Positions 4,211-19,681 of a DNA stretch of 32,000 bases are shown one piece after another. Source of the stretch: Pseudidiomarina andamanensis. Its GTDB lineage: Bacteria > Pseudomonadota > Gammaproteobacteria > Enterobacterales > Alteromonadaceae. The notes under the pieces are model-generated. The model was not told the origin of the DNA and made no database searches. It saw only the letters and a list, made by a program, of their open reading frames with translations. The number at the start of each line of letters is the position of its first letter. The first letter of the stretch is position 1. The DNA lies in contig NZ_CP032551.1 in the NCBI RefSeq assembly GCF_009734345.1, forward strand, positions 930,001 through 962,000, written 5' to 3'. A program made the position numbers and the translations under genes.

Positions 4211-4280
4211 AAAACAAAAACGCCGCTTCATGAGCGGCGTTTTATTAGGATTTGGTGGAGCTGGCGGGAGTTGAACCCAT
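4211..4280 (-). repeat. Distal att-type direct repeat: duplicated ssrA 3' end (26 nt) plus ssrA terminator
   Basis: aaaacaaaaacgccgcttcatgagcggcgttttattaggatttggtggagctggcgggagttgaaccc(at) is near-identical to 14838-14904, the real tmRNA 3' end, and to 11652-11720. Confidence 0.85.
4216..4243 (+). terminator. Intrinsic terminator (bidirectional shape) after yebG, part of the distal ssrA repeat
   Basis: aaaaaCGCCGCTtcatgAGCGGCGtttt: a 7-bp GC stem flanked by an A-run and a T-run. Confidence 0.7.
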
Positions 4281-4304
4281 CTATTACCTTTATCTTTCAA
4301 GAGG

Positions 4305-5315
4305 CTATTTTTTTCGGCCTAAAATTTCAATGTAATCTTGCTCTAATAAATTAGAGATTGACGATTCAAGTACTTTATACGGCGGAAATATTTTTTTGAG
4401 CTTTTCAAATTTATGATTTTTATAGACTATACCAATTGGGTCATAAATTGCACATTTTGCTATAGCTTGTTTTGAAAAACATTCTTGACTGGCAATTATT
4501 AATTTAGAAGTAACTTTGAATAGGTATTCCGCCGTTTCTGGTGCTTCCTCCAGCACAGTTTCAATTGCTGTAGCAAAGGAGGTATTTGAAGCTACTTGTT
4601 CAAAGTTGTTATTTGGAATCAGAAGATTTCCATCTTCATTCGGCTCAATATTCTGAAGAATCGATTCCTTTCTAATTAGCGCAAGTTGCAATGTCTTATA
4701 AAAATGTACAAAGTCTAAATCGACCCTTGTTAGATCGATGATAATATTGCCTTTATCCCCAGTCTCAGCTTCATAAAATAACGGTTCGTAGTACTTCGAA
4801 AACCTTCCGTGCAAATATCCATATCTTGAAAATTTTATTGAGTTATACGTAATGTCATTTACATCCAATTTTGAAAATATGGCTCGGAATGCTCTAAACG
4901 CATCTGACTCATATCCCCGCAGTAAAGATGATAATGCGGCATCCGTGTCTGTCACTAATATCAATCGGGTATATAAATCCTCAATCAATTCATTTACTAA
5001 AGTTATTTCGTTAACTTCGGATTTGAGTTCGTCTTTGTCATGTACGATTTGGGCGTTATGGGCGCCTGTATATGCAGCAGCTAAAGCGCCTGTTATACCT
5101 AACAACGGTATAGTATATTTCGAACTGATAACCACACTAATAACCAAAAGAATAGCCGTTACTACAACCAAGACTTTGAGAACAAACTTAAGCGCATTCT
5201 TTTGATAGTCGTCCGATACTTTATTCTTTAGCTCACTATACGCCGTGCTTAACTTAGACAAAACACTTTGAGTTCTCCCAATTAGATTAATATTATTAAA
5301 TTTCACCTGAGCCAC
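4305..5315 (-). CDS. Hypothetical membrane protein (2 predicted TM helices plus ~240-aa soluble domain)
   Basis: 336-aa ORF, very AT-rich. The hydrophobic stretches are FVLKVLVVVTAILLVISVVI and IPLLGITGALAAAYTGA. The track start is GTG 5315. GTG 5306 has the better SD (aggtgg, 5-nt spacer) and forms a GTGA overlap with the integrase-remnant stop. No known domain recognised. Confidence 0.6.
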   Translation of the reverse strand: MAQVKFNNINLIGRTQSVLSKLSTAYSELKNKVSDDYQKNALKFVLKVLVVVTAILLVISVVISSKYTIPLLGITGALAAAYTGAHNAQIVHDKDELKSEVNEITLVNELIEDLYTRLILVTDTDAALSSLLRGYESDAFRAFRAIFSKLDVNDITYNSIKFSRYGYLHGRFSKYYEPLFYEAETGDKGNIIIDLTRVDLDFVHFYKTLQLALIRKESILQNIEPNEDGNLLIPNNNFEQVASNTSFATAIETVLEEAPETAEYLFKVTSKLIIASQECFSKQAIAKCAIYDPIGIVYKNHKFEKLKKIFPPYKVLESSISNLLEQDYIEILGRKK

Positions 5316-5925
5316 CTTTCGTAGACTTTCCGTATCATACCCCGGTCTTTATGTCCTAGTTGCCGTGCTACCCGCATCAGGTTTTCACCGTTAGTCAGCA
5401 TCGTCGATGCGCAAGTATGTCGGCATGCATCGGGCTTTAAGTATCTGACTTTAGACTGTTTTAAAGCGGGTTGCCAGTATCGTTCAACGGGCACGCCATC
5501 ATACTTCCAACGTTTGCCAGTTTTGGAGTCAAGAAACACATAGCCGGTGCGGTGAAATAATTGCCACGGAACATTTAATGCATTCTCATTCAGTTCGTGT
5601 GTTCGGTTACTGGCGGTTTTCGTACCAACTTTACGCCCTTTCATAATTGATTCACGAATGAAAATCACACCACGTTCAATATCAACATTATCCCACCGTA
5701 AACCGATTTGCTCACCAGTTCTTAGAAATGTCCCAAATGCGAACACGTAAAAATCACGGACATTGCTCCTTGGGAATACTTCCAACATTCGTTCATATTC
5801 ATCGGCATTGAATGCCTTAGCCTATTCGCGTTCAGTTCGCATTCCTTTAACGCTTTTCATCCGATTGAACTCTATGATGTCGTCATACATCAAATACAGA
5901 CTGCTACAAGGCAGCTCCATTGGTA
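5303..5925 (-). pseudogene. Tyrosine integrase remnant A (5'-truncated, internal nonsense codon)
   Basis: ORF 5303..5788 encodes the catalytic C-terminus: LRTGEQIGLRWDNV, CRHTCAST, LGHKDRGMIRKVYERWLR with the putative catalytic Tyr. Homology to integrase B continues upstream of 5788 (SLYLMYDDIIEFNRMKSVKGMRTERE*AKAFNADEYERML) through an in-frame TAG. It stops abruptly next to the 5933 gene. Confidence 0.8.
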
Positions 5926-5932
5926 GTCACTA

Positions 5933-6673
5933 TTATTCACTTATTCTAAAAACTAGAGGCTCTGGAACGGCGTACAGTAACGATCTTTTGATGCGGCCTT
6001 TAGGGAAACCTGTAACTTCAAATAGTTCGTCTTTGAGTAATGCTGCTTCCTTTGCTGTTAATCGGGGATCGAGCATTAGTTGATCAATTAGTTCACATGG
6101 GCTAACCGGATAGGAATATAGACTGTTTTTTGCTCTTCTGAAGACGTCATGATACAAAAGACGAACCTCTCTTTCGTGGCTAAAGGCACGGCGTTTAATT
6201 AACAGTGACTTGAAAATATTGATATTAGCAATTCCTAAATCACTAAATATCTCGAGTCCAAAGTCAATTAGCTTTTTCTGGGACCAATACTGAACCTTCC
6301 CAATACCACTTGTCATATATCCGAGTGGAGGATGGGCCGCCTCGATGCTTGAGAGTAGTTTCCGAATGGTTGTTCTCACTCTTATTCCCGCAAAGTCAGG
6401 TGAATAAATGCGCCACATAGCGTCTGAGGCTGAATTCAACGTCCAACATTGACCATATGTATTTTCATGGAATGGATATTCAGTCTCAAGCGTGCTTTTT
6501 TCACTTTGGATTTTCGACTTCATAAGAAGGTTTTCGAAGGGGTCGTCCCATTTACTCGGATGAGCCAAAATGTTTTTCTCTTGTTTGAAAAGCTGTAATA
6601 AATGCTCCTTTTTAAAAATCCTGTAGACCTGTTTATCGAGGCATTCGTCATGCATGTATATAAGATTTTTCAT
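5933..6673 (-). CDS. DUF2971-family protein
   Basis: 246 aa. The following motifs fit the DUF2971 pattern as I remember it: VYRIFKKEHLLQLFKQEKNILAHPSKWDDPFEN (N-terminal ...fNDPfE), CWTLNSASDAMWRIYSPDFAGIRV (...CfS..MW..Y..g..Gv), and the late HEREVRL (E.EwR) motif. Confidence 0.65.
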   Translation of the reverse strand: MKNLIYMHDECLDKQVYRIFKKEHLLQLFKQEKNILAHPSKWDDPFENLLMKSKIQSEKSTLETEYPFHENTYGQCWTLNSASDAMWRIYSPDFAGIRVRTTIRKLLSSIEAAHPPLGYMTSGIGKVQYWSQKKLIDFGLEIFSDLGIANINIFKSLLIKRRAFSHEREVRLLYHDVFRRAKNSLYSYPVSPCELIDQLMLDPRLTAKEAALLKDELFEVTGFPKGRIKRSLLYAVPEPLVFRISE

Positions 6674-6827
6674 ATGCCTCCCAAGGCACTCGATAAAAGA
6701 TTTTAAGTGTTCAAATTTCGTTTTCTTATCCTGAGGATTCCTAGTCTAATTAACGTCCTTGAGGATCTTGAAGAATCATCAAATACTTCTAAATTTAGCT
6801 AGCCAGTTAAATTAATGACACGTCCTA

Positions 6828-8231
6828 TTATGCAACTCGCTTTTGCGATGTAGTGTCAACGTCACGATTTGTCACTTTCAATGTCGATAATCTAGGCTTA
6901 ATCAACTCTGCAATCGCCCGGAAAACAGGCACGACTACCGAGTTACCAAATTGTTTATAGGCTTGCGTATCTGACACCGGAATCACGAACTCACTACCGT
7001 TTGGCGTGCTAAAACCCATTAGTCGCGAACACTCTAACGGGGTTAATCGACGGGGTCTGTTTGCTACGTTCTGCGGATCATCAAAGGGCTTGCTCGCGTC
7101 AAAGCCTCGATCGACCAGAATTTCAGAACCATCCTTGTAATAGCGCGCCGAGAGTGTACGCGCTCGATCGTTCGGGCCAACTAAACCAAATCCGAAACCA
7201 TTACCTTTCTCCTGATGCTTTTTCGCATAGTTGAACAGGTACTCCCATAGGTTTGGCGTCAATATGTACTTATTGTCAACCTCAGGCTCAAGAATATCCC
7301 CTAGCTTTGGTGCTGTGGCTTTCGATGGCTTTTTTAAATCTCTTAAGGTAAACCCTTGATGAATATTCAAATCCCGCCGAAAGCCAACCAATACGATTCG
7401 CTCTCGATGCTGAGGCACCCAGTGCGCACCATCAATAATACGAGGATCATTTGGCCCTTCATGGTTGGCATCAGCAACTTCATAGCCAAGTTCATCCAAA
7501 GCTTTCATGATCACTTTAAACGTTTTACCACGGTCGTGGCTCTTCAAGTTCTTAACGTTCTCTAACACAAAAGCCGGTGGACGCTTGGCAGCAATGATGC
7601 GAGCGACATCAAAGAACAACGTACCTTGGGTGTCACATTCAAACCCATGCTTAACACCTAATGCATTTTTCTTCGACACCCCAGCAATTGAGAACGGCTG
7701 GCATGGGAAACCAGCAAGCAATACATCGTGATCAGGAATGACAGAATCAATGTGTTCATAAGCTTTCTCATCTGACACCGACGGATCAGCGCTTAGTGTG
7801 ACATCCCGAATATCCTCATTGAATCGGTGATATTCATTGTCACACGCATAGTTAGCCTTGTAGGTACGTACCGCGAATTTATTCCACTCGCTTGTGAATA
7901 CGCATAACCCACCCTGCTCTTCGAAGCCTTTACGAATACCACCAATCCCGGCAAATAAATCAATAAAGCGGAAATCACAAGTGTCAGGTGTTACTTTCGG
8001 CTCTGGAAAAAGCTTCAGAAGATGCAGATACTCTGAGTGAGTCAAGCTAGGCGCTGCTTTACCTTTTACCCATCGGTTAATTGTCTCTCGCGTCCAACGG
8101 TTATTTGGAAGCTGATTCAAATACTCAGCAAGGAACGTTTGGTCGTATATTTCCAGTAACTTGGTAACGACTTCTAGATCAGCCATTTCGTTTCGTTGTT
8201 GTTCTTCTGTGTTCAAGCTCATCTGGTACAC
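6828..8231 (-). CDS. DNA (cytosine-5)-methyltransferase with ~85-aa N-terminal HTH-like extension (type II R-M M subunit)
   Basis: The canonical m5C motifs are present: [10 protein letters not shown] (I), GFPCQPFS (IV), ENVKNL (VI), [14 protein letters not shown] (IX), [10 protein letters not shown] (X). The N-terminal extension contains an XRE-like stretch, [21 protein letters not shown]. The GTG start at 8231 has a gggag SD 5 nt upstream. An alternative ATG lies at 8222. Confidence 0.93.
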
Positions 8232-8252
8232 TCTCGCTCCCTAGGACATTTA

Positions 8253-8269
8253 TGTGATATAAGATCACA
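8253..8269. promoter_or_regulatory. Candidate operator palindrome in the M/R divergent intergenic region
   Basis: TGTGATataagATCACA (6-bp arms, 5-nt spacer) lies 22 nt upstream of the methyltransferase start. Confidence 0.3.
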
Positions 8270-8434
8270 CAATCGTTCCAATGCGTCAACAATAAACTGA
8301 TCATTTATACAGTGTATATTTAATCATCAGTCTTGCCAGTTTATGAGATATATTTCCGTTAATGCTTACAATAATCTTTGCTATTCACTTAATCTTTACA
8401 TGTTGGTAATGTAGCCAACTGGTATAGAAAAATA

Positions 8435-9760
8435 TTGGATATCATGTTGATGGAATTAACGAATATTGTTGAGCAGATGAAGCTCAATGGAGCCAAACGG
8501 ATTTTAATTAAGGCTCTAGCGAATAACGATAATTCAAAGAATCAAATCTACCTCGGCTCAGATTTCGAGGTCATTCGCGCGATCCCATCCGGTGATGTTT
8601 ATGCGGATGGTGTAAGTAAAAAAGGCCCTATATTCAAAGCACCGTTGGATTTCTATTGGGTCACGGCTAACGGTGAAACGCAAAAAGCGCAATATGCGCA
8701 AATTATCCTCTATCCAAAATATCCTGAAACCCGCATGTCGGGATTTATGCGAGGTTGCGATCGGAATATTGCACCAAGCCATTTGATGCAGCCTCCGACA
8801 CCAGAGCAACGGGCACAGCGCCAAGGCTCAAACCGATACCTCATACTTGGCGTCAACGAAAGTTCTATATGGGCTTTTTGCACAGGCTGGGGCGGCGAGA
8901 TCCAACGAGAGGCCAAAGCGCTCATTGAAAGCGGTCAAACGACGCTTGTCGCCTCAGTTTTTCACGAATATAAAGGTAGTCAGCAATCGAGTGAAGAAAA
9001 GCTGTTACAGCGGCTGCGGGAAATATACGAACTTGGTCCTATTGAATCCTGCCGACTCAACGCAAGTGGTGAATTACTTCCATACAAAGCGCAAAATGGC
9101 GCTGGCTACACGCTTGAAGCCCAATTCGGCATCACCCCCAACGGGTCGCCAGATCCAGACTTTATGGATTGGGAGATTAAATCGCACTCAGGCGGCGCTG
9201 TTACGCTCATGACACCAGAACCTAATGTTGGCACCTACCTTGATGATTTGGAGGTGTTTTTGCGCCAATACGGCACACGTATTCAGCCTGAACGTCTAGA
9301 TTTCGCCAGTCGGCATGATGTCGGTAAGCAAAACGCTAAAACCAATCTGACCATGCACCTTGAGGGATATGACCCCAAATCAGGCAAAGTGACCGATCCT
9401 GAAGGGGGCTTGATGTTGCGCGATCCCGCCGGTGAGTTAGCAGCTGGTTGGAAGTTTGAGAAGATCATTCAGCATTGGAAGAACAAGCACTCGAATACCT
9501 GTTTTGTATCCTACACAGCTGTTAAAGAAGAAAAGGTGTACTACCAGTACGGACCTAAGGTAACGCTCGGTAAAGGAACAAGCTTAGACAAGCTGCTTAG
9601 TGCGCTCTACACCAGCACCATTTACTACGATCCTGGCGTGAATATGAAGTTGGTTGATGGTAGGTGGAAGCCCAAAAAGCGGAATCAATTTAGGGTTGGT
9701 TGGAAGAATCTAGAATATCTTTATATAACGCTTTCGGAGCGACAGCTAAATGAAACATAA
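8435..9760 (+). CDS. Type II restriction endonuclease, MutH/Sau3AI/MvaI-BcnI-like catalytic half with extra N-terminal domain
   Basis: Divergent from the m5C MTase. GAGYTLEAQFGITPNGSPDPDFMDWEIKSH matches the MutH-type signature (G..vE..lG....PDF...GvElKt; D...E-x-K). The N-terminal ~110 aa (KRILIKALANNDNSKNQIYLG...YPETRMSGF) loosely resembles EcoRII-N/B3-like effector domains. The start is uncertain: TTG 8435, ATG 8444 or ATG 8450. Confidence 0.65.
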   Translation: MDIMLMELTNIVEQMKLNGAKRILIKALANNDNSKNQIYLGSDFEVIRAIPSGDVYADGVSKKGPIFKAPLDFYWVTANGETQKAQYAQIILYPKYPETRMSGFMRGCDRNIAPSHLMQPPTPEQRAQRQGSNRYLILGVNESSIWAFCTGWGGEIQREAKALIESGQTTLVASVFHEYKGSQQSSEEKLLQRLREIYELGPIESCRLNASGELLPYKAQNGAGYTLEAQFGITPNGSPDPDFMDWEIKSHSGGAVTLMTPEPNVGTYLDDLEVFLRQYGTRIQPERLDFASRHDVGKQNAKTNLTMHLEGYDPKSGKVTDPEGGLMLRDPAGELAAGWKFEKIIQHWKNKHSNTCFVSYTAVKEEKVYYQYGPKVTLGKGTSLDKLLSALYTSTIYYDPGVNMKLVDGRWKPKKRNQFRVGWKNLEYLYITLSERQLNET

Positions 9761-9796
9761 TTTGGCGAATGCTGTGCGTTGGAAGGACTCTTACCT

Positions 9797-10531
9797 ATGA
9801 AGTTCGGTAATGAAAACGCTGTAATATGGTTGATAGCAACATCAGGAGTTCTCATATCAGGTATTTTCCTAGGCCTGATGATAAATTTAAATTCCGATAA
9901 AGTTGGGATTATATCTAACTTCGTCACCGCTGTTGGTACTTGGGGCATACTTATAACTGCGATATTTAGTTATCAAAATTGGCGTAACCAAAAAGTAACT
10001 GAAGCTCAAAGGGAAGACGCCTCAGCCGCACTTGCTCATTTGCTTTTAATTATTCCTCACAGACACAAATTGGCTATTCCGGAGTCCACTAAAAAAAGAA
10101 TAGACTCATTATTATTCGGATTAAAAACAGCTCCCGATGAGCTTACCCAACCAGAAAAAATTGTTGGTGATGCCATTCACGATGTGAATAAAAGTTTAGA
10201 AGAGGTCATCGAAGACATCTCATCTAAAGTCAACTCTGCAATAAGCTGCTCAGCTGCAATAGAACAACCAATCATTGATAAGCTTGCAAGTATAAGCTGG
10301 CAGATTCATTGCTGTAAGCAATTCGAGCGTGACTCGATAGACGATAATACTTATTTTACCGAACTTGTTAGTGCAGAGGTCAATGCACCATTAAGTAAAC
10401 AGTTTATAACGACAACGAGCACTTTCTATCTTACGAAGTACAGTTCTTTGGATCGCTTATCAGAGGTAATAAATGATATTCAAGATGTCATTGCGACCCT
10501 AAGGAAAATAGCTAGGTACGAAGCAACTTAA
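9797..10531 (+). CDS. Hypothetical membrane protein (2 N-terminal TM helices plus helical soluble domain)
   Basis: The ATG at 9797 (MKFGNENAV...) is preferred over the track's TTG at 9779. TM stretches are VIWLIATSGVLISGIFLGLMI and VTAVGTWGILITAIFSY. It begins 37 nt after the endonuclease stop on the same strand, with no terminator seen. No known domain. Confidence 0.6.
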   Translation: MKFGNENAVIWLIATSGVLISGIFLGLMINLNSDKVGIISNFVTAVGTWGILITAIFSYQNWRNQKVTEAQREDASAALAHLLLIIPHRHKLAIPESTKKRIDSLLFGLKTAPDELTQPEKIVGDAIHDVNKSLEEVIEDISSKVNSAISCSAAIEQPIIDKLASISWQIHCCKQFERDSIDDNTYFTELVSAEVNAPLSKQFITTTSTFYLTKYSSLDRLSEVINDIQDVIATLRKIARYEAT

Positions 10532-10578
10532 TTTGATCTCTTTGGTGTCAATTTAACTGATCCCAGAAGGTAAAAATC

Positions 10579-11166
10579 ATGAAACGGATTGATTTGTCTG
10601 ATTACTTAGTACATTGGACAAAACCGGTAGAGGATATGACTGCCTTAGATGTCCTAATGAAAATTATCAACGAAAGAAAAATTTTAGCCGGTAACGGCAT
10701 GATTAAAGGAGGATTTAACTGCATTTGTTTTACCGAAGCACCAAAGAATATTTTTCATAACGTTGAAAAGAATAATGCTAGATATCATCCATTTGGCATT
10801 TGTGTTCCTAAAATTGAGATCTTCCGCCTCGGAGGGCGGCCTGTCATCTATCAGCAAACTGAAGAATTCGATCTTCTTCACGAGTCTCAACAGTGGCGTC
10901 ATGTTACGTATGATCCATTCACAAATATTGATTTTACTTGGGAACGTGAGTGGCGACTGCATAGGCCTCAATTTAACTTAGAGGGAACCATAGCAGAAAT
11001 CATAGTTCCCAATGAAGACTGCCACTCACAATTACTTAACGAACATCAATATAATGAAGAGTGGCGAATATGGGGCGATATAGTTGGATATGGCGATTTT
11101 GCTGGCTTTCAAGAACCAAATGATTTTCCATTTAGAATCGTTTCGCTCCAAAACATACAAGAATAA
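10579..11166 (+). CDS. AbiGi/DUF2971-like abortive-infection-type protein
   Basis: 195 aa. DYLVHWTKPVEDMTALDVLMKIINERKILAG...NCICFTEAPKNIF...HPFGICVPK...GGRPVIYQ...WEREWRL follows the AbiGi-type pattern (HfT...l..IL..g.l....vCFte.P....yG+.f.k....g..PV.Y....E.EWR). SD is agaaggt. Confidence 0.55.
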   Translation: MKRIDLSDYLVHWTKPVEDMTALDVLMKIINERKILAGNGMIKGGFNCICFTEAPKNIFHNVEKNNARYHPFGICVPKIEIFRLGGRPVIYQQTEEFDLLHESQQWRHVTYDPFTNIDFTWEREWRLHRPQFNLEGTIAEIIVPNEDCHSQLLNEHQYNEEWRIWGDIVGYGDFAGFQEPNDFPFRIVSLQNIQE

Positions 11167-11380
11167 AGGAAAGCCAAATGCTCTGAAACTATGCCTTTTC
11201 TAGGAATAAAGCGAAAAGACTAACATTCACTACGTATTTGAATTCATAATACCAACACCTCTCCCATCAACTTGACTCGACGGTCCAATTAGTCGTCCAA
11301 TTTGTACACCTTTAGTACTCAGTAAGTTAATTGTGACTACCCCGTAAAATAAATTGAATCGCCTCTATAACAACTTAATT

Positions 11381-11409
11381 TTGCAAGTCAGCGTCTAATG
11401 TTCTATATA
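11381..11409 (+). promoter_or_regulatory. Sigma70-like promoter for the 49-aa ORF
   Basis: TTGCAA-N17-TATATA, about 40 nt upstream of the ATG at 11449. Confidence 0.4.
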
Positions 11410-11448
11410 CTCAACTGTACTACTTTAATTCAGTTCAAGGAGCCCAGC

Positions 11449-11598
11449 ATGGCTGTAAAACACACACCTACTGGTGTAGTCCACCAAGGTAAGAAAGGTG
11501 GTAAAACAGGATGCGGTTTTAATACAAACGACAACCCAACGCATTGGGTTGATTCCCACGAGAAAATAAACTGCGACAAAAAAGGTTGTAAGAATTAG
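11449..11598 (+). CDS. Small Cys/His-containing basic protein (49 aa)
   Basis: The true start is likely ATG 11449, which has an aaggag SD 6 nt upstream; the track starts at 11398. Sequence: MAVKHTPTGVVHQGKKGGKTGCGFNTNDNPTHWVDSHEKINCDKKGCKN. The ORF ends ~60 nt before the terminator copy that starts the internal repeat. Confidence 0.5.
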   Translation: MAVKHTPTGVVHQGKKGGKTGCGFNTNDNPTHWVDSHEKINCDKKGCKN

Positions 11599-11651
11599 AT
11601 AGATAAATGTCACCTGCAGACGTTTCCCCAGAGTCTTTAGAGGTAACAAGG

Positions 11652-11720
11652 AAACAAAAACGCCGCTCAACGAGCGGCGTTTTATTAGGATTTGGTGGAG
11701 CAGGCGGGAGTTGAACCCAT
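11652..11720 (-). repeat. Internal att-type direct repeat: second pseudo-copy of ssrA 3' end plus terminator
   Basis: aaacaaaaacgccgctcaacgagcggcgttttattaggatttggtggagcaggcgggagttgaaccc(at). It has one substitution in the acceptor-stem segment (gagcAggc) relative to the real gene, and no tmRNA body follows. Confidence 0.85.
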
Positions 11721-11819
11721 AAAATTTGTATTTTTCATAAATACTTATGTCTTTATCTGGACGCCTAACCATGTAAATATTAGTGATTCTTTTATAACTA
11801 TAATTTAAAGGAGCCAATA

Positions 11820-12695
11820 ATGCCAAGGGAACAACACCAGAATTTCGATATTAGTATTCACTATTCTGGCGATATCGTCACGAATGATCATAAGATTGGC
11901 TTAAGAACATATGCTAATACCTTACATCACCTATCAGCGGCCGTAGATCGGGCATTATTGAGTCATCATCGTGGACGCATTCACAAGAATGCACGAATCA
12001 CGAGGGACGAAAGAGCTGGATTAGATTTTATTGTTTTAGATCCAGAAGATAACGGAATAGTATTAAAGTTTATAGCGAATCAAAATAATCCTATCGCAAG
12101 ATTTGTAACCGAGAAAATAGCCAACTATTTGGAGGATGCTAATCGACAAGAACCCCAAGCGACAATCACCCCGGCACAGATTAGAGAAAGAATTGCGCAA
12201 ATCCAACAAGAAGACGAAATTCGCGTAGAGCAAATGCCAGATCGAGAAGATGATTTTGCGAAAAAGGCAATTTGTAGAGAAATCAATTCCATTCTGGGCG
12301 AAATAAGACACGAGCACGCAGGTCAAAGCCAAATTAGGATCGAGTTAAAAAAAGCAAATGGTGAAACTACTCGATTGGAGTTTAATAGATTCACAGCTGA
12401 AAATTTCAATAGAATCGTAAACGGTCGCTCTATCATAGGGCCATTTCTTTATCAGCTAAGGATAAAGGCTCTCGACTTAATGAATCAAAGCAAAATGCAT
12501 GCGAAATGCATAGATGTCGTGACAGGAAAACAGCGTACACTTTACTTCAAAGATTTAGCAGACCTTCAACGTATGAAAGAATACTTGACAACAGATGACG
12601 AAATATCCGTCAACATATATGGGTTTTCAATTACGGAATTTAATGTTGTCGACAATATAGCTGGTGACATTCACTTTATTGCAATTCAAGAATGA
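11820..12695 (+). CDS. Hypothetical soluble protein (291 aa), first gene of a two-gene cassette
   Basis: Strong SD (aaggag, 6-nt spacer). The N-terminal domain is followed by an acidic/Gln-rich linker (QIQQEDEIRVEQMPDREDD) and a C-terminal domain. No motif recognised. Its stop overlaps the next start (ATGA at 12692-12695). Confidence 0.65.
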   Translation: MPREQHQNFDISIHYSGDIVTNDHKIGLRTYANTLHHLSAAVDRALLSHHRGRIHKNARITRDERAGLDFIVLDPEDNGIVLKFIANQNNPIARFVTEKIANYLEDANRQEPQATITPAQIRERIAQIQQEDEIRVEQMPDREDDFAKKAICREINSILGEIRHEHAGQSQIRIELKKANGETTRLEFNRFTAENFNRIVNGRSIIGPFLYQLRIKALDLMNQSKMHAKCIDVVTGKQRTLYFKDLADLQRMKEYLTTDDEISVNIYGFSITEFNVVDNIAGDIHFIAIQE

Positions 12696-13357
12696 TAGAC
12701 ACTGTAGAGTTCGCGAAATTTAATCGGTATACAAGGACATGCTTAAATGTTGTGTCTACTTTTTTAGTGCTTTCTGCTCTCTCAAACCTTTATCAAATTC
12801 GGTTAACTGAATTCGGAAACGTCGGATTGTTCGACATTCTTTTTGAAATCGATTTTTTAACCTTATTTGATGTCTTTAAAGCATTAGATTTGAGGTTTTC
12901 CTCTGGTCTTTTTGTACTGTTTGTTTTTGTAATTTGTCATTTTATTAATCTTCTATATGTCAAGGCTATATTATGGGAGATTGAAGACTTTCTTCCAGAA
13001 ACGACAGTACATCAGGACAAATTTCAACAGAATAAAAACGAGAACACCTACTATATACGGACTGTATTCTTTAAGGCATTTATTAAGTTTAAATTAACAA
13101 GTTCACTTGTCACACTGATAAGTGGAAATGTGATCATTATGTTTCAACAAAATTTCAGCAGAAGTAGTAACTTTTCAGTTGACTATGTATACCTCACGGT
13201 ATGCCTTTTAGTTGCATTCCTTTGTTTCATCCCGGCAGCGAGAGCAATACAACAATTTTCTAGGGAGCTGCTCCTATTGCATAATGACGAGTTAATTAGG
13301 GCAAACATCAAGATAACCAATAAAGAAGCAATCAAGGAAATTTGTCGGATTTACTAG
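12692..13357 (+). CDS. Hypothetical 4-TM membrane protein (221 aa), second gene of the cassette
   Basis: Translationally coupled to 11820..12695. Hydrophobic segments are CLNVVSTFLVLSALSNLY, GLFVLFVFVICHFINLLYV, LTSSLVTLISGNVIIMF and YVYLTVCLLVAFLCFIPAA. Its stop overlaps the ancestral stop of integrase B on the opposite strand. Confidence 0.6.
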   Translation: MIDTVEFAKFNRYTRTCLNVVSTFLVLSALSNLYQIRLTEFGNVGLFDILFEIDFLTLFDVFKALDLRFSSGLFVLFVFVICHFINLLYVKAILWEIEDFLPETTVHQDKFQQNKNENTYYIRTVFFKAFIKFKLTSSLVTLISGNVIIMFQQNFSRSSNFSVDYVYLTVCLLVAFLCFIPAARAIQQFSRELLLLHNDELIRANIKITNKEAIKEICRIY

Positions 13358-14190
13358 GTTATCCACCGACCATAGACTTACCTTATCATACCCCAATCTT
13401 TATGACCTAGCTGCCGAGCGACCCACATAGGGTTTTCACCGTTCGTAAGCATAGTCGATGCGTATGTGTGACGATACGCATAAGGCTTTAAGTATCTGAC
13501 TTTAGAATGTTTTAATGCAGGTTGCCAGTACCGCTCGCGGGGAATGCCATCGTACTTCCAACGTTTGCCAGTTTGTGGGTCAAGAAATACAGAGCCGGTG
13601 CGGTGAGCTAATCGCTTCAGAACAGCCAATGCGTTCTCATGCAATTCGTGTGTTCGGTTACTGCCAGCGGTTTTCGTACCAGCTTTACGCCCTTTCACGA
13701 TTGATTCACGAATGAAAATCACACCGCGTTCAAGAACAACATTATCCCAACGCAAGCCGATTTGCTCACCCGTTCTTAGACCTGTCCAAAATGCGAACTC
13801 GTAAAAGTCACGAGCATAGCCCTCTGGTAGTGCTGCCAGTATTCGTTCACGTTCGTCGGCATTGAATGGCTGAACTTCTTCACGCTCGGTTTTCATGCGT
13901 TTAACACTTTTCATTGGGTTACGCTCAATGATATCGTCATAAACCAAATAATCGAACGCTTGGCTCAATAGGCTATGCACTTCATTGGCGGTTTTGGGGT
14001 TCAACCTCGTCTTGCGTTGCCATTTGCGAAAATGGGATGGTTTGAAGTCGCACACCCGAAGCTGACCGAAGTTTGGCAAAATGTGGTTATCCATCCGACC
14101 GCTATTTCTTTGAGTGCACAATACGCCCAATCTCTATATCTTTACTTGGACCATTGTTCGCACATTTCGATAACTGTGAGTGATGCCAAA
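13354..14190 (-). pseudogene. Tyrosine integrase remnant B (premature stop before the catalytic Tyr, 5' frameshift and truncation)
   Basis: ORF 13378..14130 carries LRTGEQIGLRWDNV, YRHTYAST and LGHKDWGMIR, then TAA. Reading through that stop gives VYGRWIT*, i.e. the conserved catalytic-Tyr tail (copy A has K-VYERWLR*). Upstream of 14130 another frame reads LTVIEMCEQWSK*, which looks like a shifted N-terminal segment. There is no room for an Arm-binding domain before 14252. Confidence 0.8.
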
Positions 14191-14251
14191 TTATTGTTTA
14201 GATAGTTAATTTACTGACGGGAATTTCTTCGACAAATTTACCCTCTACAAA

Positions 14252-14554
14252 TCAACCATCACAAGCGCAACCTTTTCCTTTATTGCAATTTTTACTTCTT
14301 GAAATGCAACTATCACCGCATGCTTTCCCTTTCCTGCAAACCTTGCAGCATTTTGCATACTCTGATATCTCATCAGGAGACGCTTTTGAGAATGAATCAT
14401 TTAATTCAACCACAACATCGTTACATTCAACGTTCACCGATTGAACCGTTGAATTCACATTATTAGGTATTGTCGAAATGTCTTGGGCTATAACGCTTTG
14501 AGCAAAAAAGATCGTTGAAGCAATACCCAAGTAAATCAAAGATTGACGCATCAT
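14252..14554 (-). CDS. Secreted cysteine-rich small protein (100 aa)
   Basis: Signal peptide MMRQSLIYLGIASTIFFAQSVIAQ, with a strong aaggag SD. The C-terminus CCKVCRKGKACGDSCISRSKNCNKGKGCACDG has 8 Cys in 32 residues. Confidence 0.65.
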   Translation of the reverse strand: MMRQSLIYLGIASTIFFAQSVIAQDISTIPNNVNSTVQSVNVECNDVVVELNDSFSKASPDEISEYAKCCKVCRKGKACGDSCISRSKNCNKGKGCACDG

Positions 14555-14696
14555 CTGACTCCTTAATATTGTTTACTTATCACTATCTATTTAGCTAATG
14601 TTTTGTGATATACCAAATTTAATAATTTGATTTGAATATTTAACAGAGCGGACTAAATTTAATCGGTGAAGAGTTAAACGTTTGGAGGTGATTGAA

Positions 14697-14819
14697 ATGA
14701 CAATTAAGCCCGGTCCAAAGCCGAAAGCGGAATCAACTGGAAAAACTGATAAACGGCGTAGAGTGACAGAAGAAAACAAACCAAAACATCCGTCTTTGAA
14801 AAAACACGAACATAAATAA
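14697..14819 (+). CDS. Possible 40-aa lysine-rich peptide
   Basis: Not in the track (below 60 aa). SD ggaggtg lies 6 nt before ATG 14697. My translation is MTIKPGPKPKAESTGKTDKRRRVTEENKPKHPSLKKHEHK, with the stop at 14817-14819. The terminator follows about 20 nt later. Confidence 0.35.
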   Translation: MTIKPGPKPKAESTGKTDKRRRVTEENKPKHPSLKKHEHK

Positions 14820-14841
14820 TCGATTATTGAATTTTAAAAAC

Positions 14842-14869
14842 AAAAACGCCGCTCAATGAGCGGCGTTTT
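14842..14869 (-). terminator. ssrA intrinsic terminator (bidirectional shape)
   Basis: aaaaaCGCCGCTcaatgAGCGGCGtttt lies about 10 nt downstream of the tmRNA CCA end on the minus strand. Confidence 0.8.
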
Positions 14870-14878
14870 ATTTGGATT

Positions 14879-15238
14879 TGGTGGAGCTGGCGGGAGTTGA
14901 ACCCGCGTCCGTAATACCTACATCCTCGGTCCTACATGCTTAGTCAGTCTTTTAGTTAATCACCAAGTCGCCGACAGACAGGCTACTTAAGGTGACGATC
15001 CCGATTGGTTTTAACGCTTTGGCTACGGGCGAAGCCTCCACGCGAGTCTGCTTTGGGGTGAACCGACTGATCCTAGTCTCACAGACAAAGCGCTAGGGGT
15101 CGGACTCAGCGGGTTATTAAGCCGCTAAAGCGTAGTTGTCGTCGTTTGCAACTATTAAGTTGAGGCTTTTTACGAGGCCAGCCTCACCTCGGCATGCACC
15201 TTGGGTTTCGTTTATTCCGTCGAATCCAAATCAGCCCC
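14879..15238 (-). ncRNA. ssrA: tmRNA (SsrA), one-piece, ~360 nt
   Basis: The minus strand starts GGGGCTGATTTGGATTCGACGG and ends GGGTTCAACTCCCGCCAGCTCCACCA. The tag reading frame is GCA AAC GAC GAC AAC TAC GCT TTA GCG GCT TAA TAA (15149 down to 15114), giving ANDDNYALAA. Confidence 0.95.
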
Positions 15239-15274
15239 TAAGGTTAACGTGTTTAAGTCTACACCTATATGGTG

Positions 15275-15306
15275 GCGCTGTCAGCTATTTCAAGTGCTGA
15301 CAGCGC
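15275..15306 (-). terminator. Perfect 11-bp hairpin downstream of the protease gene (terminator-like, no U-run)
   Basis: GCGCTGTCAGC-tatttcaagt-GCTGACAGCGC lies 13 nt after the protease stop. Confidence 0.4.
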
Positions 15307-15318
15307 AATTAAACACCC

Positions 15319-17244
15319 TTATTGCCATTCAACCAACAAGTCGACACCTGAATAGGCTTGATAACCTTGCAAGCTGATGTACCAGCGACCACTGCCTGGA
15401 TTATCAATCGCACAGGTTTCATTGTTACCTGAACGATATGGGCGACAATCGTAGCTTGATTCAGTTGGCTGAGAACCTTGGCGAACATACAAGTCAGCAT
15501 CACCAGTACCGCCAGACATGGTCACATTCAAGCTCGTCATGCCAGCTGGCAAATCGACATAGTAATGCGTCCACGAGCCTGTTGCGCCTGATAAGTCGGT
15601 CGCTGAAGCTGAACCGCCCTCACCGCCACCAGTGCTTGGCTCAGTGAACGAACCGGTTAGGTTCACACCAGAGAAGCTTGAGTAAGCATTGATCATGACA
15701 TGATAAGTACCAGCTTGTACGTTCGAAATGGTACAAGTTTCGGTATTACCTGACAGATACGGACGGCAATCATAGGTTGATGAGGTAGGTTGTGCACCAA
15801 AGCGAACATAAAGGTCACCATCACCGGTACCACCATTCATGCTAAAGCTTAAGTCGGTTGCACCTGCTGGTACGTCGAGCGTGTAATACAATGATGCACC
15901 CGTACTTGCAGACAGATTCGTTTCGGTAACACCATTGGTTAATACGCCATCTGCCGGTGGCTCACCGCCGCCACCTGAGCCACTGCAGCCGTTGGCGTCG
16001 AGGTAATCAATAGCATCTTTGGTTTGCACTAAACCATAACCAAATTTCACATCGCGGCCTGCCGAGCCCAAATCTTGCGCAGATGCGTTCAGTGCATCAC
16101 GAATTTGTGCAGCACTACAGGTTGGATGATGTGACCAAACAAGTGCGGCAACGCCTGCAACATGTGGCGACGCCATTGAGGTACCGCTCATGTTGCCATA
16201 GTTACCTTGGCTGCCGGTTCCTTCAGGATACGTTGAAAATACATTCACACCCGGTGCGGCAATTTCCACTTGGCTATTCTTTTGTGAGAACGATGCCAGC
16301 GCCTTATTGCTATCAACCGCAGCTACCGACATAACTGCGTTGTATGACGCTGGGTACGAAAGTGCATCGGTTGAGCTATATGCAGAACCGTCGTTACCTG
16401 CAGCGGCAATCAATAAAACGCCTTGATTGAACAAGTTCTGCATGGCGTTCGCTTCGGTTTGGCTAGCACCACCGCCACCTAAGCTCATGTTCACCACATC
16501 AGAGCCGTTGTCCGCGCAGGTTTCAATGGCTGCAACCAATGACGATGAGTAACCCCAACCGCTTGCATTAAATACCTTCACAATGTGCATATTTGGATTA
16601 CTGCCAATCACGCCACGCACACCTAACCCATTGTTTAGCGCGGCAATAGTACCGGCAACATGGGTGCCATGCGGCCCACCTTCGTCATACCAGTTGCCGG
16701 TACCGCTATCGTTGGTACCGTTAATGGTGTCAAAGCGCGTTCCCATATCTTCATGTGGCAAATCTAAACCTGAATCGATCACACAGATTTTTTTACCGCC
16801 TGCGGCAGCTGAAGCGACGCTGTCATCTACGAGGTTTGCTTGCACCATATTGATGCCATATGGCACCGTTTGCGCCATAAAGCGGCGCTTCTGGTCAACT
16901 TCAATGAAATCAACATTCGGATTTTTCTCGAAACGTTTCATGTCTTTTTGGGACATTTCAGCAGCAATAGCAAGGTTATGGCGCATGCTCACTTTGACCT
17001 TACCACCGGCTTTCTCAACCATGCTTTTAGCGCGTGCTAAAGCAAGTTCTGAGCGACCACGGTTACCAGCGCGCTGCACCGCTGCACTGTTCTCTTTAAA
17101 CTTTATAATGAAACGCTGAGTTTCGTTTGTTTCAGTTTGAACACGTTGCAACGGTTGAGCTGAAATCTGTTCAGATGACTGAGCGTAGGCATTGGATACT
17201 GATACGGCGAGAGCCGACAGCGCAAGGAAGGATAACTTTTTCAT
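15319..17244 (-). CDS. Secreted subtilisin-family (S8) serine protease with two C-terminal PPC (pre-peptidase C-terminal) domains
   Basis: The start is reassigned to MKKLSFLALSALAVSVSNAYA, a signal peptide. The catalytic triad motifs are VIDSGLD, HGTHVAGTIAA and GTSMASPHVAG. Two repeated ~100-aa modules follow, each with GDGDLYV/GDADLYV and YDCRPY. Confidence 0.9.
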   Translation of the reverse strand: MKKLSFLALSALAVSVSNAYAQSSEQISAQPLQRVQTETNETQRFIIKFKENSAAVQRAGNRGRSELALARAKSMVEKAGGKVKVSMRHNLAIAAEMSQKDMKRFEKNPNVDFIEVDQKRRFMAQTVPYGINMVQANLVDDSVASAAAGGKKICVIDSGLDLPHEDMGTRFDTINGTNDSGTGNWYDEGGPHGTHVAGTIAALNNGLGVRGVIGSNPNMHIVKVFNASGWGYSSSLVAAIETCADNGSDVVNMSLGGGGASQTEANAMQNLFNQGVLLIAAAGNDGSAYSSTDALSYPASYNAVMSVAAVDSNKALASFSQKNSQVEIAAPGVNVFSTYPEGTGSQGNYGNMSGTSMASPHVAGVAALVWSHHPTCSAAQIRDALNASAQDLGSAGRDVKFGYGLVQTKDAIDYLDANGCSGSGGGGEPPADGVLTNGVTETNLSASTGASLYYTLDVPAGATDLSFSMNGGTGDGDLYVRFGAQPTSSTYDCRPYLSGNTETCTISNVQAGTYHVMINAYSSFSGVNLTGSFTEPSTGGGEGGSASATDLSGATGSWTHYYVDLPAGMTSLNVTMSGGTGDADLYVRQGSQPTESSYDCRPYRSGNNETCAIDNPGSGRWYISLQGYQAYSGVDLLVEWQ

Positions 17245-17518
17245 AGATTTTCTTCTCTTTATTATTATGAGATTGGCGTATAAAAGCCAGTGCTTAACAG
17301 CGGCGGGATACAACATTCGGCTGCAGTTCGGTTACTACACAATTGTTGCTATAGATTTTCGCAACCACACGACCATAACAAGGTTAGTTGTCTAACTAAA
17401 TATTTAAAAAGTAAACCGTATGTAAAATTCAGGTTTTAATTCATGTCAAATTTGTTGATTTGTTAACTAATTATTTCGTATTCTAGCGCTCCCTATAATA
17501 ATAATAACGGATTCTCCC

Positions 17519-18367
17519 ATGCGTAAGATTTTCTTAATTTGTTGCTTTATGTTAGCGGCTGGATGTACCAGCGCTCCTCAGTATCAATCGCCAGCACCGC
17601 TAACAACCAAAGAAAACTCAGAAAGTTATAAATTATTTAAACATGATGGTGTAAATACAGCGAGTCATGTTCAAGTTCATCTAGATGAAGCAAAGGATAT
17701 TGCTTATGTGCAAAGTTTCGGAGGGGGCGGTGTTGCGCTAGGCGTCGCATTTGGTCCACTGGGAGTGCTGGCGAACATCTCGATGATTCAAGCAGAAACG
17801 AAAAGCGACCTCACGCAGTTGTATAATAAAATTCCCATTCCAGTGAGTGCAATGTTTACAGAGGCGGCTTCGGCCAAAAGTATTCATTATGATGACAATG
17901 CAGAAGGTCGTTTTCATCCATTTATGATGGTGGTGCGTGATGAAAATGAGACACTTCGCATGGGTACCGCACTAATTGTTGAATTACCTCAAGCAGACGG
18001 CAAAGTATGGAGTGGTCGATACACCCATCAGACAGCATTGCATGTACCACTCAAAAATGTAGCTGACGGTCTTGACGAAAGCGAGTACAAGACAATCTAT
18101 GATGCCATTCAACAAAGCTTCAATGAATTAACCGATATATATCAACAAGACAGACTTGGTCAGTTGACCGACCATGAGCAAATTCTCGTCAATTCAACTT
18201 TTTTGACACCCCGAATCACTATTGAACTGAATGGCGTTCTATTAAAGCAGGATGAAAATCGCGTACTTGTTCGATCAGGGCTTGGTATTATCTCGCTTCC
18301 TCAAGATGACAGTCTCGAATTAGAAAAAGTTCGTGTCAAAGCAAGTAAAAAACGCGCGAAGAGCTAG
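17519..18367 (+). CDS. Hypothetical lipoprotein
   Basis: 282 aa with lipobox MLAAGC. No domain recognised. Confidence 0.65.
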   Translation: MRKIFLICCFMLAAGCTSAPQYQSPAPLTTKENSESYKLFKHDGVNTASHVQVHLDEAKDIAYVQSFGGGGVALGVAFGPLGVLANISMIQAETKSDLTQLYNKIPIPVSAMFTEAASAKSIHYDDNAEGRFHPFMMVVRDENETLRMGTALIVELPQADGKVWSGRYTHQTALHVPLKNVADGLDESEYKTIYDAIQQSFNELTDIYQQDRLGQLTDHEQILVNSTFLTPRITIELNGVLLKQDENRVLVRSGLGIISLPQDDSLELEKVRVKASKKRAKS

Positions 18368-18379
18368 ATTAGAAATAAC

Positions 18380-19519
18380 TCAATTATTCAACGCGCGACT
18401 GATAACCACAGCCGCGCGCTGTTTACGTCGACCAAAACCAAACGCTCGTTTAAAAGTAGCAAGCGGAATCGGCAAATACTGTCTATCGGCGGCTGATTGC
18501 CACGGAAAACTGTCTTGATCAGGGTCATTGATGTACACGTAATGGTCATCGGCAGCACAGATTAATACCCAGTGCGGCGCTTTGCTTTCGTCAAAAACAT
18601 ACGTACTAATCAGTGCAATCACCAATTTGCCTTTATGAAGGTCATGCAATAGCTGGTTCAGCGTATAATCGCCAACAATAATAGGCACGCCCGCTTGTTT
18701 CAAAGCGGCAATATCGGATTCTTGAATACGCGCCATAATTTGCTTCTTATCAGCACTTCGTACCGAATCAAGTAATAACGGGCCCGATTCACTCACGTGT
18801 AGCTCAACTGACAGGCCACGTTTTAGAGCAGCACGCGCAAGCCCATGAGGGCCACAACCACCATGCCCCGAGGTCATAAATATGGTGGTCGCTTCACGCC
18901 ATATCTCAAGCTCTTCATGATGCGGATCAGGGCACGGAATATCGAAATACGCCATGGCCATCAACAAGCTCGCCGGACCGCAAGTGAACTCGGTGGTTTG
19001 AGTGCGATATGGAACGAGGCGTTGATTGCCGTTATCGAGTGAGTTTGTCTCAAAGCGTGGCAGTAGCTTTTGTAACACCAAGGCATCACTATCATCCTCA
19101 TAATATTCCGGACGAATTTCCATGTCGTAATAACCGGCGTGGTGATACATCTTTAATGCCGCGGTATTATCGGTTTTTACTTCAAGGCGCATGAATAGGC
19201 AAAAGCGTGCATCAGCATCATCTTCGGCGGCATCCAACAATAAACGCCCTACCCCACGTCGACGGAACTCAGGGTCAACAGCTAACGAATATAGACGCGC
19301 TAATTCAGTGGCTTGACGATACAAAACAATATAGTAACCAATCACACGACCATCGAACTTTGCCACTTTGAAGTCGCCAATGTTTTGGTCGATAAAACGA
19401 CGAAAACTACGACGACTAATGCGGTCGGTGACAAAGCTTAAGTTTTCAATTTGTTCTAAAGCGTCGAGATCATCGCGAGTCGCTTGAACAAGTTGAAGTT
19501 GATTAACATTGAATTGCAT
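18380..19519 (-). CDS. GNAT N-acetyltransferase / peptidase C39-like fusion protein
   Basis: The N-terminal half has the RimI-like acetyl-CoA motif (LAVDPEFRRRGVGRLLL). The C-terminal half has papain-like C39 signatures: FTCGPASLLMA (Cys) and APHWVLICAADDHYVYINDP (His). ATG 19519 (MQFNVNQL) is preferred over the track's GTG 19543. Confidence 0.75.
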   Translation of the reverse strand: MQFNVNQLQLVQATRDDLDALEQIENLSFVTDRISRRSFRRFIDQNIGDFKVAKFDGRVIGYYIVLYRQATELARLYSLAVDPEFRRRGVGRLLLDAAEDDADARFCLFMRLEVKTDNTAALKMYHHAGYYDMEIRPEYYEDDSDALVLQKLLPRFETNSLDNGNQRLVPYRTQTTEFTCGPASLLMAMAYFDIPCPDPHHEELEIWREATTIFMTSGHGGCGPHGLARAALKRGLSVELHVSESGPLLLDSVRSADKKQIMARIQESDIAALKQAGVPIIVGDYTLNQLLHDLHKGKLVIALISTYVFDESKAPHWVLICAADDHYVYINDPDQDSFPWQSAADRQYLPIPLATFKRAFGFGRRKQRAAVVISRALNN

Positions 19520-19681
19520 ACAACAGCCTAAGCGTGCGGGCACGCGCTACGATGAGAGCGTTTATTATACGCTGAAAGTTGAACGAAAAAACAACTATCT
19601 GCGCGCAATCGGCTATCGCGCAGACGCTTCGAAAGTGCTAAACTAGCGCGCAAATTTTTTGCCCGAGCTGAGGACCCACCC

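Follow-up and report, generated by a model that had tools for sequence, protein, structure and literature searches.

This analysis concerns a two-gene cassette beside ssrA, the transfer-messenger RNA (tmRNA) gene, of Pseudidiomarina andamanensis (NCBI RefSeq assembly GCF_009734345.1, contig NZ_CP032551.1); "the window" denotes the whole 32,000-nucleotide (nt) stretch analysed, positions 930,001 to 962,000 of the forward strand, and coordinates given without a locus name are counted from its first letter. Gene A of the cassette codes for a soluble protein of 291 amino acids (aa) and gene B for a membrane protein of 221 aa with four predicted helices. The cassette is best explained as a functional two-gene operon, the cargo of a small integrative element that has decayed since its insertion at ssrA. 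We consider it somewhat probable that the pair, A+B, is an anti-phage or inter-element exclusion module that follows the logic of lambda RexAB. The family has been noticed before, was catalogued and was tested once without success, and it remains an unvalidated candidate.

The cassette and its integration site comprise the following features.

11651-11718, no strand: distal attachment (att) copy, left edge of the proximal island, a D3 repeat
11719-11819, plus strand: AT-rich operon leader, read directly in the sequence
11820-12695, plus strand: gene A, soluble protein of 291 aa, a full-length intact open reading frame (ORF)
12692-13357, plus strand: gene B, four-helix membrane protein of 221 aa, an intact ORF, helices from hydropathy
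13360-14130, minus strand: tyrosine integrase remnant, convergent with gene B (Pfam Phage_integrase, E = 1e-16)
14837-14904: proximal att copy, within the ssrA end, a D3 repeat
14879-15238, minus strand: ssrA (tmRNA), the integration site (ARAGORN; Rfam RF00023 at 243 bits)

A Shine-Dalgarno sequence, AAGGAG, is located at 11808-11813, 6 nt 5' of the gene A ATG, and the stop codon of A overlaps the start codon of B in the tetranucleotide ATGA (12692-12695). Judged by their frames and this overlap, A and B are both intact and translationally coupled. A consensus sigma-70 scan returned no strong plus-strand promoter ahead of gene A. The block TGTAAATAT at 11772-11780, some 40-50 nt ahead of the A start, is kept in the alignment of all three Idiomarina-type loci (the window and the loci L001 and L007) and is a possible -10 region of the operon promoter.

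The region around the cassette is structured by a family of 68-nt direct repeats, D3, whose three copies (4211-4278, 11651-11718 and 14837-14904) are 93-96% identical and each consist of the last 26 nt of ssrA and the ssrA terminator hairpin. Three such att repeats imply that two tandem islands occupy the ssrA site. Genes A and B, the integrase remnant and a 100-aa Cys-rich ORF are located in the proximal island (11719-14836, ~3.1 kb). Compared with the intact Idiomarina homologue in L001, the remnant retains residues 107-364 only (tblastn; 14106-13360, 65% identity), its N-terminal arm-binding domain is gone, and its translation runs into a premature TAG two codons ahead of the catalytic Tyr (...GMIR*VYGRWI, the asterisk marking the stop). 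On this reading of its sequence, the integrase is dead and the island is no longer able to excise. At 36.0% (A 38.6%, B 33.9%), the G+C content of the cassette is below the 44.6-47.3% of the flanking core.

An earlier, sequence-only reading of this stretch had described the 291- and 221-aa genes, their ATGA coupling and aaggag Shine-Dalgarno sequence, the ~3.1-kb island at ssrA, the dead integrase and the four transmembrane (TM) helices of B, and all of these descriptions hold, the four hydrophobic helices recurring at the same positions in homologues. That reading also had the cassette filling the slot between the integrase and the distal att copy; the slot is real, although the integrase ends at ~13360/13378 and not at 13354. 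Its figure of about 35% G+C fits the cassette, whereas the ~50% that it gave for the core is too high.

In an Idiomarinaceae metagenome-assembled genome (MAG), a 5.4-kb ssrA element (L001 7877-13325) represents the nearest intact relative of the window island. A 26-nt repeat of the ssrA end flanks this element, whose order is att, A and B, integrase (Int), DUF1233, two small ORFs, a Phage_GPA replication protein (Rep) of the P2-gpA rolling-circle type, and ssrA; A+B is its sole cargo. A minimal satellite or a mobilisable element of marine Idiomarinaceae is a possible interpretation. The ssrA-end repeat lies ~100 nt ahead of A in L001 and also in L007. The window island lacks the Rep/Xis genes that the intact L001-type element has, and the Idiomarina-type integrase was the one integrase query to match the window (tblastn). 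A P4-like carrier is ruled against, as the psu, delta, sid and alpha genes of the E. coli P4-like element match nothing in the window (tblastn). Judged by gene content, the window cassette is carried by a degraded relative of the L001-type 5.4-kb Rep(GPA)/Int mini-element, one that has lost the Rep region.

The main argument for a role in defence is that A+B repeatedly occupies slots for defence cargo, and does so on several unrelated carriers. The pair has at least four kinds of carrier, namely P4-like satellites, P2-like prophages, Prim-Pol integrative elements and tiny Rep/Int elements at ssrA. In E. coli, where A+B is present in 25 of 5426 complete genomes, the pair is found inside a canonical P4-like satellite at ssrA (L026; ssrA, int, B, A, psu, delta, sid...alpha), and the order psu-A-B-int recurs in the IMG/VR loci L024/25 and in 10 metagenome loci, some of which carry a strongly divergent psu. 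Two different P2-like prophages harbour A+B between the replication gene gpA and the portal gene Q, i.e., in the A-Q hotspot, and in one of them (L022) genes for SLATT_4 and DUF2971 proteins adjoin the pair. On the integrative element of L020, A+B travels together with genes for an integrase, an HTH_17 and a Prim-Pol protein. L039 has the pair within a Type I restriction-modification (R-M) operon (hsdR-hsdS-A-B-hsdM), and in L057, where B is a 279-aa variant, the pair abuts a BrxL gene and hence lies beside a BREX locus. When the neighbours of 16 long loci are pooled, integrases, satellite genes, R-M genes and MADS components are abundant. The P4 psu-int and P2 A-Q loci were defined as anti-phage hotspots by Rousset et al. 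2022 (PMC9122126); the sequence-only reading had taken integrase-adjacent slots to be such hotspots, and the homologous pairs at P4 psu-int, at P2 gpA-Q, within the R-M operon and beside BrxL/BREX agree with it. A defensive role is further suggested by the R-M operon embedding, the BREX adjacency, the patchy distribution, the low G+C content and the fast evolution of B, as well as by the survival of both genes in an island unable to move.

The family has already entered the literature on these hotspots, and the description of the cassette as an undescribed system is therefore not entirely right. Table S1B of the hotspot study records the pair as P4 hotspot system #30, which occurs 51 times, has no Pfam domain and carries the remark "4 TM in protein 2" (PMC9122126). 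The cloned representative, pFR87 ("HP + 4TMs"), derives from a P4-like satellite of E. marmotae E1118 and was placed on a low-copy plasmid under its native promoter in the host MG1655 (PMC9122126). Protein 1 of pFR87 is 28% identical to window A over the full length (BLASTP 2e-35). Apart from this full-length homologue of A, system #30 shares with the window the gene order, the coupling, the size of B and the four B helices, and in E. coli it likewise is situated next to an integrase at ssrA. The two differ in that window B has no detectable sequence similarity to the 219-aa B of system #30, and in that system #30 travels on a P4-like satellite, whereas the window carrier is a decayed relative of the Rep/Int mini-element; system #30 is itself unnamed and unvalidated. 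With DefensePredictor, WP_024238668.1, the A homologue of E. coli, scores 4.90 in mean log-odds, above the strict cutoff of 4, and is labelled "Predicted novel defense gene" (PMC13092281). This protein is absent from the other supplementary files of that paper that were examined, and so probably is not among the units cloned there. In a 2026 Nucleic Acids Research (NAR) study of P4/P2 hotspots, six previously unknown loci were validated, and two "unknown" P4 loci did not protect; judged by their descriptions, none of the named systems Crouga, Bandua, Aernus, Toga, Reve and Hailong matches the pair.

Relatives of A are few and scattered. An exhaustive HMMER search (E <= 0.001) of 1.84 billion cluster representatives yielded 133 A-family proteins (clusters at 50% identity), 93 of which are 275-315 aa long and aligned along nearly their whole length. 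A word-indexed protein search recovered just 4 A relatives and, for B, nothing but window B itself, the same type of search with the 90-sequence A profile (alignment A3) found only 8 proteins, a scan of genome contigs had the Idiomarinaceae MAG as sole match, and a viral scan with the Idiomarina-type alignment gave no match. The clusters are tiny (1-3 members per 90% cluster), and the family is distributed patchily over Gammaproteobacteria and Cyanobacteria, including Idiomarinaceae, Pseudomonas, E. coli, Leptolyngbya and many metagenomes. Over its full length A matches phrog_28486, a family listed with function not known (E = 1e-37). Neither A nor B has a significant match in Pfam or NCBIfam; DUF7946 weakly matches 7 of the 90 A-family members.

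Window A and its homologues can be aligned over their entire length, and window A retains nearly all strongly conserved positions of the family. The nearly invariant positions in alignment A3 are G17, K56, F188, P270, D278, G282 and D283, of which P270 alone differs in the window (Ser). They yield the C-terminal family motif E-Y-G-x-F-D-x3-G-D-[IV]-x-F, and an N-terminal helix bears the sequence ...Q-x-A-I-D-R-A.... A profile comparison with the PDB gave only marginal matches, of positions 71-170 of the A3 profile to the long coiled-coil helix of influenza haemagglutinin HA2 (E ~0.002), which was judged a helical or compositional similarity and not homology.

A confident AlphaFold2 model of A, built on the 90-sequence alignment (pLDDT 94.7, pTM 0.90), predicts an N-terminal α/β and helical region (~residues 1-200), followed by a putative C-terminal oligonucleotide/oligosaccharide-binding (OB) fold (~203-289). 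The order of the predicted elements in residues 203-289, β-β-β-α-β-β, is consistent with the canonical OB topology with the α-helix between β3 and β4. Residues ~130-145, an acidic stretch previously read as an acidic linker, are modelled with fairly high confidence and thus are not a disordered linker. A Foldseek search of the model against the PDB, one of the checks named in the sequence-only reading, gave no significant match; the weak matches are all OB-folds (LysRS anticodon-binding domain, Teb1/RPA-like, HIN), and as modelled the fold combination is without a solved relative. A fold search of BFVD with the same model retrieved three significant matches, which are uncharacterised phage proteins, one of them annotated as DUF6575. 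One of the PD systems described by Vassallo et al. 2022 contains this domain; the DUF6575 and PD-T models have no sequence match in any of the 90 A-family members.

The association of A with a membrane protein extends across the family. In all non-metagenome loci examined (L001, L007, L008, L012, L015-17, L018, L020, L021-25 and L026), A is followed at once by an ORF of 206-230 aa, which usually overlaps it, and nearly all proteins in the B position have four hydrophobic helices near residues 20, 68, 150 and 172. Among metagenomes, a small polytopic membrane protein comes after A in ~40 of the 46 evaluable loci (54 loci in all), so that the co-occurrence for which the sequence-only reading had proposed a check is indeed found. 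The main hydrophobic helices of window B are at ~residues 16-34, 72-90, 133-151 and 168-186, and a fifth hydropathy peak, at 44-62, is weaker; a single-sequence AlphaFold2 model is all-helical and of low confidence (pLDDT 48). Homologues of window B lie at the equivalent position in L001 (31% identity) and L007 (22%). The pair also occurs in five IMG/VR contigs and in E. coli, and the lengths of A and B elsewhere are the following.

Idiomarinaceae MAG: 290 + 219 aa
A short contig: 290 + 218 aa
A 685-kb MAG scaffold: 288 + 206 aa
Pseudomonas sp. ZY71: 296 + 206 aa
Leptolyngbya: 287 + 222 aa
An integrative element: 292 + 219 aa

The identity matrices of A and B are strongly correlated (31 pairs; Mantel r = 0.86, with 0 of 2000 permutations as high), and by this comparison of sequences the pair is inherited as a unit. 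B diverges much faster than A: where A proteins are ~70% identical, their B partners are ~41% identical, and at ~50% identity of A the value for B is ~27%. The B proteins fall into a cluster I (pFR87, L012, L018, L020, L022 and L023) and a smaller cluster II, which holds window B together with L001, L007 and, marginally, L008. This split could be due to very fast divergence or to non-orthologous replacement.

Two variations on the arrangement were observed. In L062 (1387-1803) and L063 (1088-1495), two of the metagenome loci that lack the usual partner, a three-helix membrane ORF of 135-138 aa is placed directly 5' of A, and there is no four-helix ORF downstream. The longer, 279-aa variant of B, which has an extended loop between helices 1 and 2, is present in L057 (10875-11714) and L081 (594-1433).

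In phage lambda, the RexAB system comprises a ~280-290-aa soluble protein, followed by a small four-helix membrane protein in one operon on a temperate element, and its logic is that a cytoplasmic sensor gates a membrane effector. A+B resembles RexAB by analogy in layout, size of the soluble protein, four-helix partner, operon and mobile carrier. Against alignment A3, lambda RexA reached an hhalign probability of 0.7% and a P4-hotspot protein with the RexA Pfam domain one of 0.2%; Pfam RexA was not found in A, and no RexA structure is among the PDB Foldseek matches. RexB compared with the B alignment A2 reached a probability of 0.25%, and the two have the four-helix topology alone in common; window B is ~75 residues longer than RexB. 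Kiwa offers a similar likeness, since it also consists of a four-helix membrane protein (KwaA) and a ~300-aa soluble protein (KwaB, DUF4868) and also resides in P4 hotspots, but its gene order is reversed, with the membrane protein first. The hhalign probabilities are 0.4% for KwaB and 0.3% for KwaA, and there is no Pfam DUF4868 or PADLOC match. The mycobacteriophages Butters and Sbash (gp30/gp31 in each case) encode soluble plus four-pass membrane proteins as prophage defence pairs, which exclude heterotypic phages and are positioned near the integration/immunity region; their hosts are Actinobacteria and their elements differ from those of A+B. The pair is accordingly Rex-like by analogy of its layout, and not a member of RexAB or Kiwa.

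Within such a scheme, A would serve as a cytoplasmic sensor or regulator of an infection cue. The modelled OB-fold suggests that this cue is a nucleic acid or a nucleoprotein, which the C-terminal domain of A would probably recognise, binding of nucleic acid by the domain being itself a supposition drawn from the model. B, co-translated and co-evolving with A, would act as an inner-membrane four-helix effector that, once released or activated by A, compromises the membrane and thereby aborts the infection. The soluble-then-membrane layout emphasised by the sequence-only reading is present, while the roles that it assigned, A sensing and B killing, are deduced from topology only; phage defence by the pair is likewise what we infer. 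More tentatively, A+B could be a new abortive-infection system, in which a novel N-terminal domain together with an OB-fold bearing the invariant acidic D-x3-G-D loop detects a phage replication intermediate or a complex of single-stranded DNA and protein and opens the fast-evolving four-helix B, acting mainly on phages outside the standard E. coli panels (marine, helper-type). Activity against such phages would explain the negative result with pFR87.

A number of observations weigh against a defensive function. The sole experimental test of a relative did not lead to reported protection: pFR87 is listed in Table S2B ("additional tested systems") and not among the validated systems of Table S2A (PMC9122126), in a study where seven P4-hotspot systems conferred robust resistance to a panel of eight coliphages (PMC9122126) and where TIR-NLR alone of 18 P4 systems tried was protective against P2-like phages (PMC9122126). 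The negative result is weak evidence, because WYL-Kiwa and RexA+4TM share Table S2B. The PADLOC search, a further check named earlier, returned no family of PADLOC-DB v2 at E <= 1 for A or B, and across the 90 A-family members there were scattered single weak matches only. No catalytic, pore or toxin motif was identified in A or B. The B proteins of clusters I and II have no detectable similarity to each other (phmmer and hhalign; E ~0.3, probability <1%), so that only position, size and topology mark the B proteins of the family as equivalent. In L008, L015-17, L018 and L074 the neighbours are housekeeping genes only and no defence gene is visible; the housekeeping-flanked pairs include those of Pseudomonas, Leptolyngbya and a MAG. 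Finally, tblastn searches of 50,697 GenBank records of sequenced phages with four A-family members and of 72,556 PLSDB plasmid records with the E. coli member gave no match. With these points taken into account, the anti-phage reading proposed for the cassette holds as that of a credible candidate and its hotspot argument stands; its claim of novelty needs correction, and the roles that it assigned are supposed from topology.

Among the alternatives, an addiction module of the toxin-antitoxin (TA) type survives best. Here, B would act as a toxin at the membrane, held in check by A, and the main role of the two would be to stabilise the mobile element or its island remnant through the death of cells that have lost it, with no dedicated phage sensing. 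Such a module would account for the tight coupling and co-divergence of A and B, the intact pair beside a dead integrase, its status as sole cargo of small integrative elements and the anti-phage phenotype not reported for pFR87. Post-segregational killing is, however, of little use to chromosomally integrated elements, and the pair is situated in hotspots of swapped defence cargo and not at backbone positions, as well as within an R-M operon and beside BREX. Moreover, many TA-like modules in slots of this kind prove to be abortive-infection systems, and the explanation hence overlaps with the defensive one; as a separate account we regard it as unlikely.

Somewhat less likely again is an accessory function in the life cycle of satellites or temperate phages, such as superinfection exclusion at the membrane, interference with a helper phage or holin/antiholin-like timing of lysis. 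If this were the role of the pair, its presence in a small minority of similar P4-like satellites (51 occurrences of system #30; 25 of 5426 E. coli genomes), its absence from the 50,697 phage records, its occurrence alone amid housekeeping genes in Pseudomonas, Leptolyngbya and a MAG and its persistence in a window island unable to excise would all be at odds with it, even though P4-like satellites, P2-like prophages and small Rep-carrying elements are among its carriers, A matches a PHROG family and the BFVD structural relatives of A are uncharacterised phage proteins.

A cellular function unrelated to conflict, e.g., that of a membrane-tethered nucleic-acid-binding or regulatory pair carried on mobile DNA, is distinctly improbable given the extremely patchy distribution and tiny clusters, the low G+C content, the recurrence in defence hotspots and R-M/BREX neighbourhoods and the fast divergence of B; it would fit the loci with housekeeping flanks only and the many cellular roles of OB-folds. 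Very improbable is that A and B are decaying, non-functional remnants of a dead island, since both ORFs are full-length and coupled with an intact Shine-Dalgarno sequence, and A is alignable end to end with P270 as the only change at seven nearly invariant positions, despite an island degraded to a truncated, nonsense-bearing integrase and deprived of the Rep/Xis genes of the L001-type element.

Should the preferred reading of an exclusion or defence module be correct, A+B would add a mechanistically unexplored sensor/effector family to bacterial immunity. The pair is one of hundreds of such candidates, with its function read here from sequence and models, and it provides a test case for "dark" hotspot cargo that has been catalogued, predicted to be defensive by machine learning and found negative in one panel. 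The marine Idiomarina-type version offers a natural host and an independent system for finding the phage trigger.

The proximal island has a second small occupant, the 100-aa ORF at 14252-14554 (minus strand), which has a hydrophobic N-terminus and a Cys-rich C-terminal half and possibly is secreted. It weakly matches phrog_11965 (E = 1e-5); its SepSecS matches are spurious. An Rfam "tmRNA_permuted" match (58 bits, 15117-15330, minus strand) overlaps the standard tmRNA gene and most likely is a secondary match to ssrA and no second RNA.

The neighbouring distal island (4279-11650) contains a Type II R-M pair, a further integrase fragment and other genes.

4308-5315, minus strand: 336-aa ORF, no Pfam match
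5306-5788, minus strand: second truncated integrase, ~82% identical in DNA to the proximal one
5936-6673, minus strand: DUF2971 protein
6831-8231, minus strand: C5 DNA methylase of the Type II R-M pair
8435-9757: MvaI/BcnI-family endonuclease of the Type II R-M pair

Just before the middle att copy, two further ORFs may constitute another candidate defence pair: one of 250 aa (9779-10531), which is hydrophobic in an N-terminal region and weakly matches "2TM effector" of PADLOC (E = 0.005), and one of 195 aa (10579-11166), with no database match. In the P2-like prophage of L022, a DUF4041-T5orf172 protein adjoins a CI-like repressor (17245-19607); DUF4041 is named in one validated defence protein of Vassallo et al. 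2022. DUF2971 genes are found near A+B in three independent settings, namely the neighbouring island of the window, L007 (1830-2837, convergent) and L022 (8053-8997).

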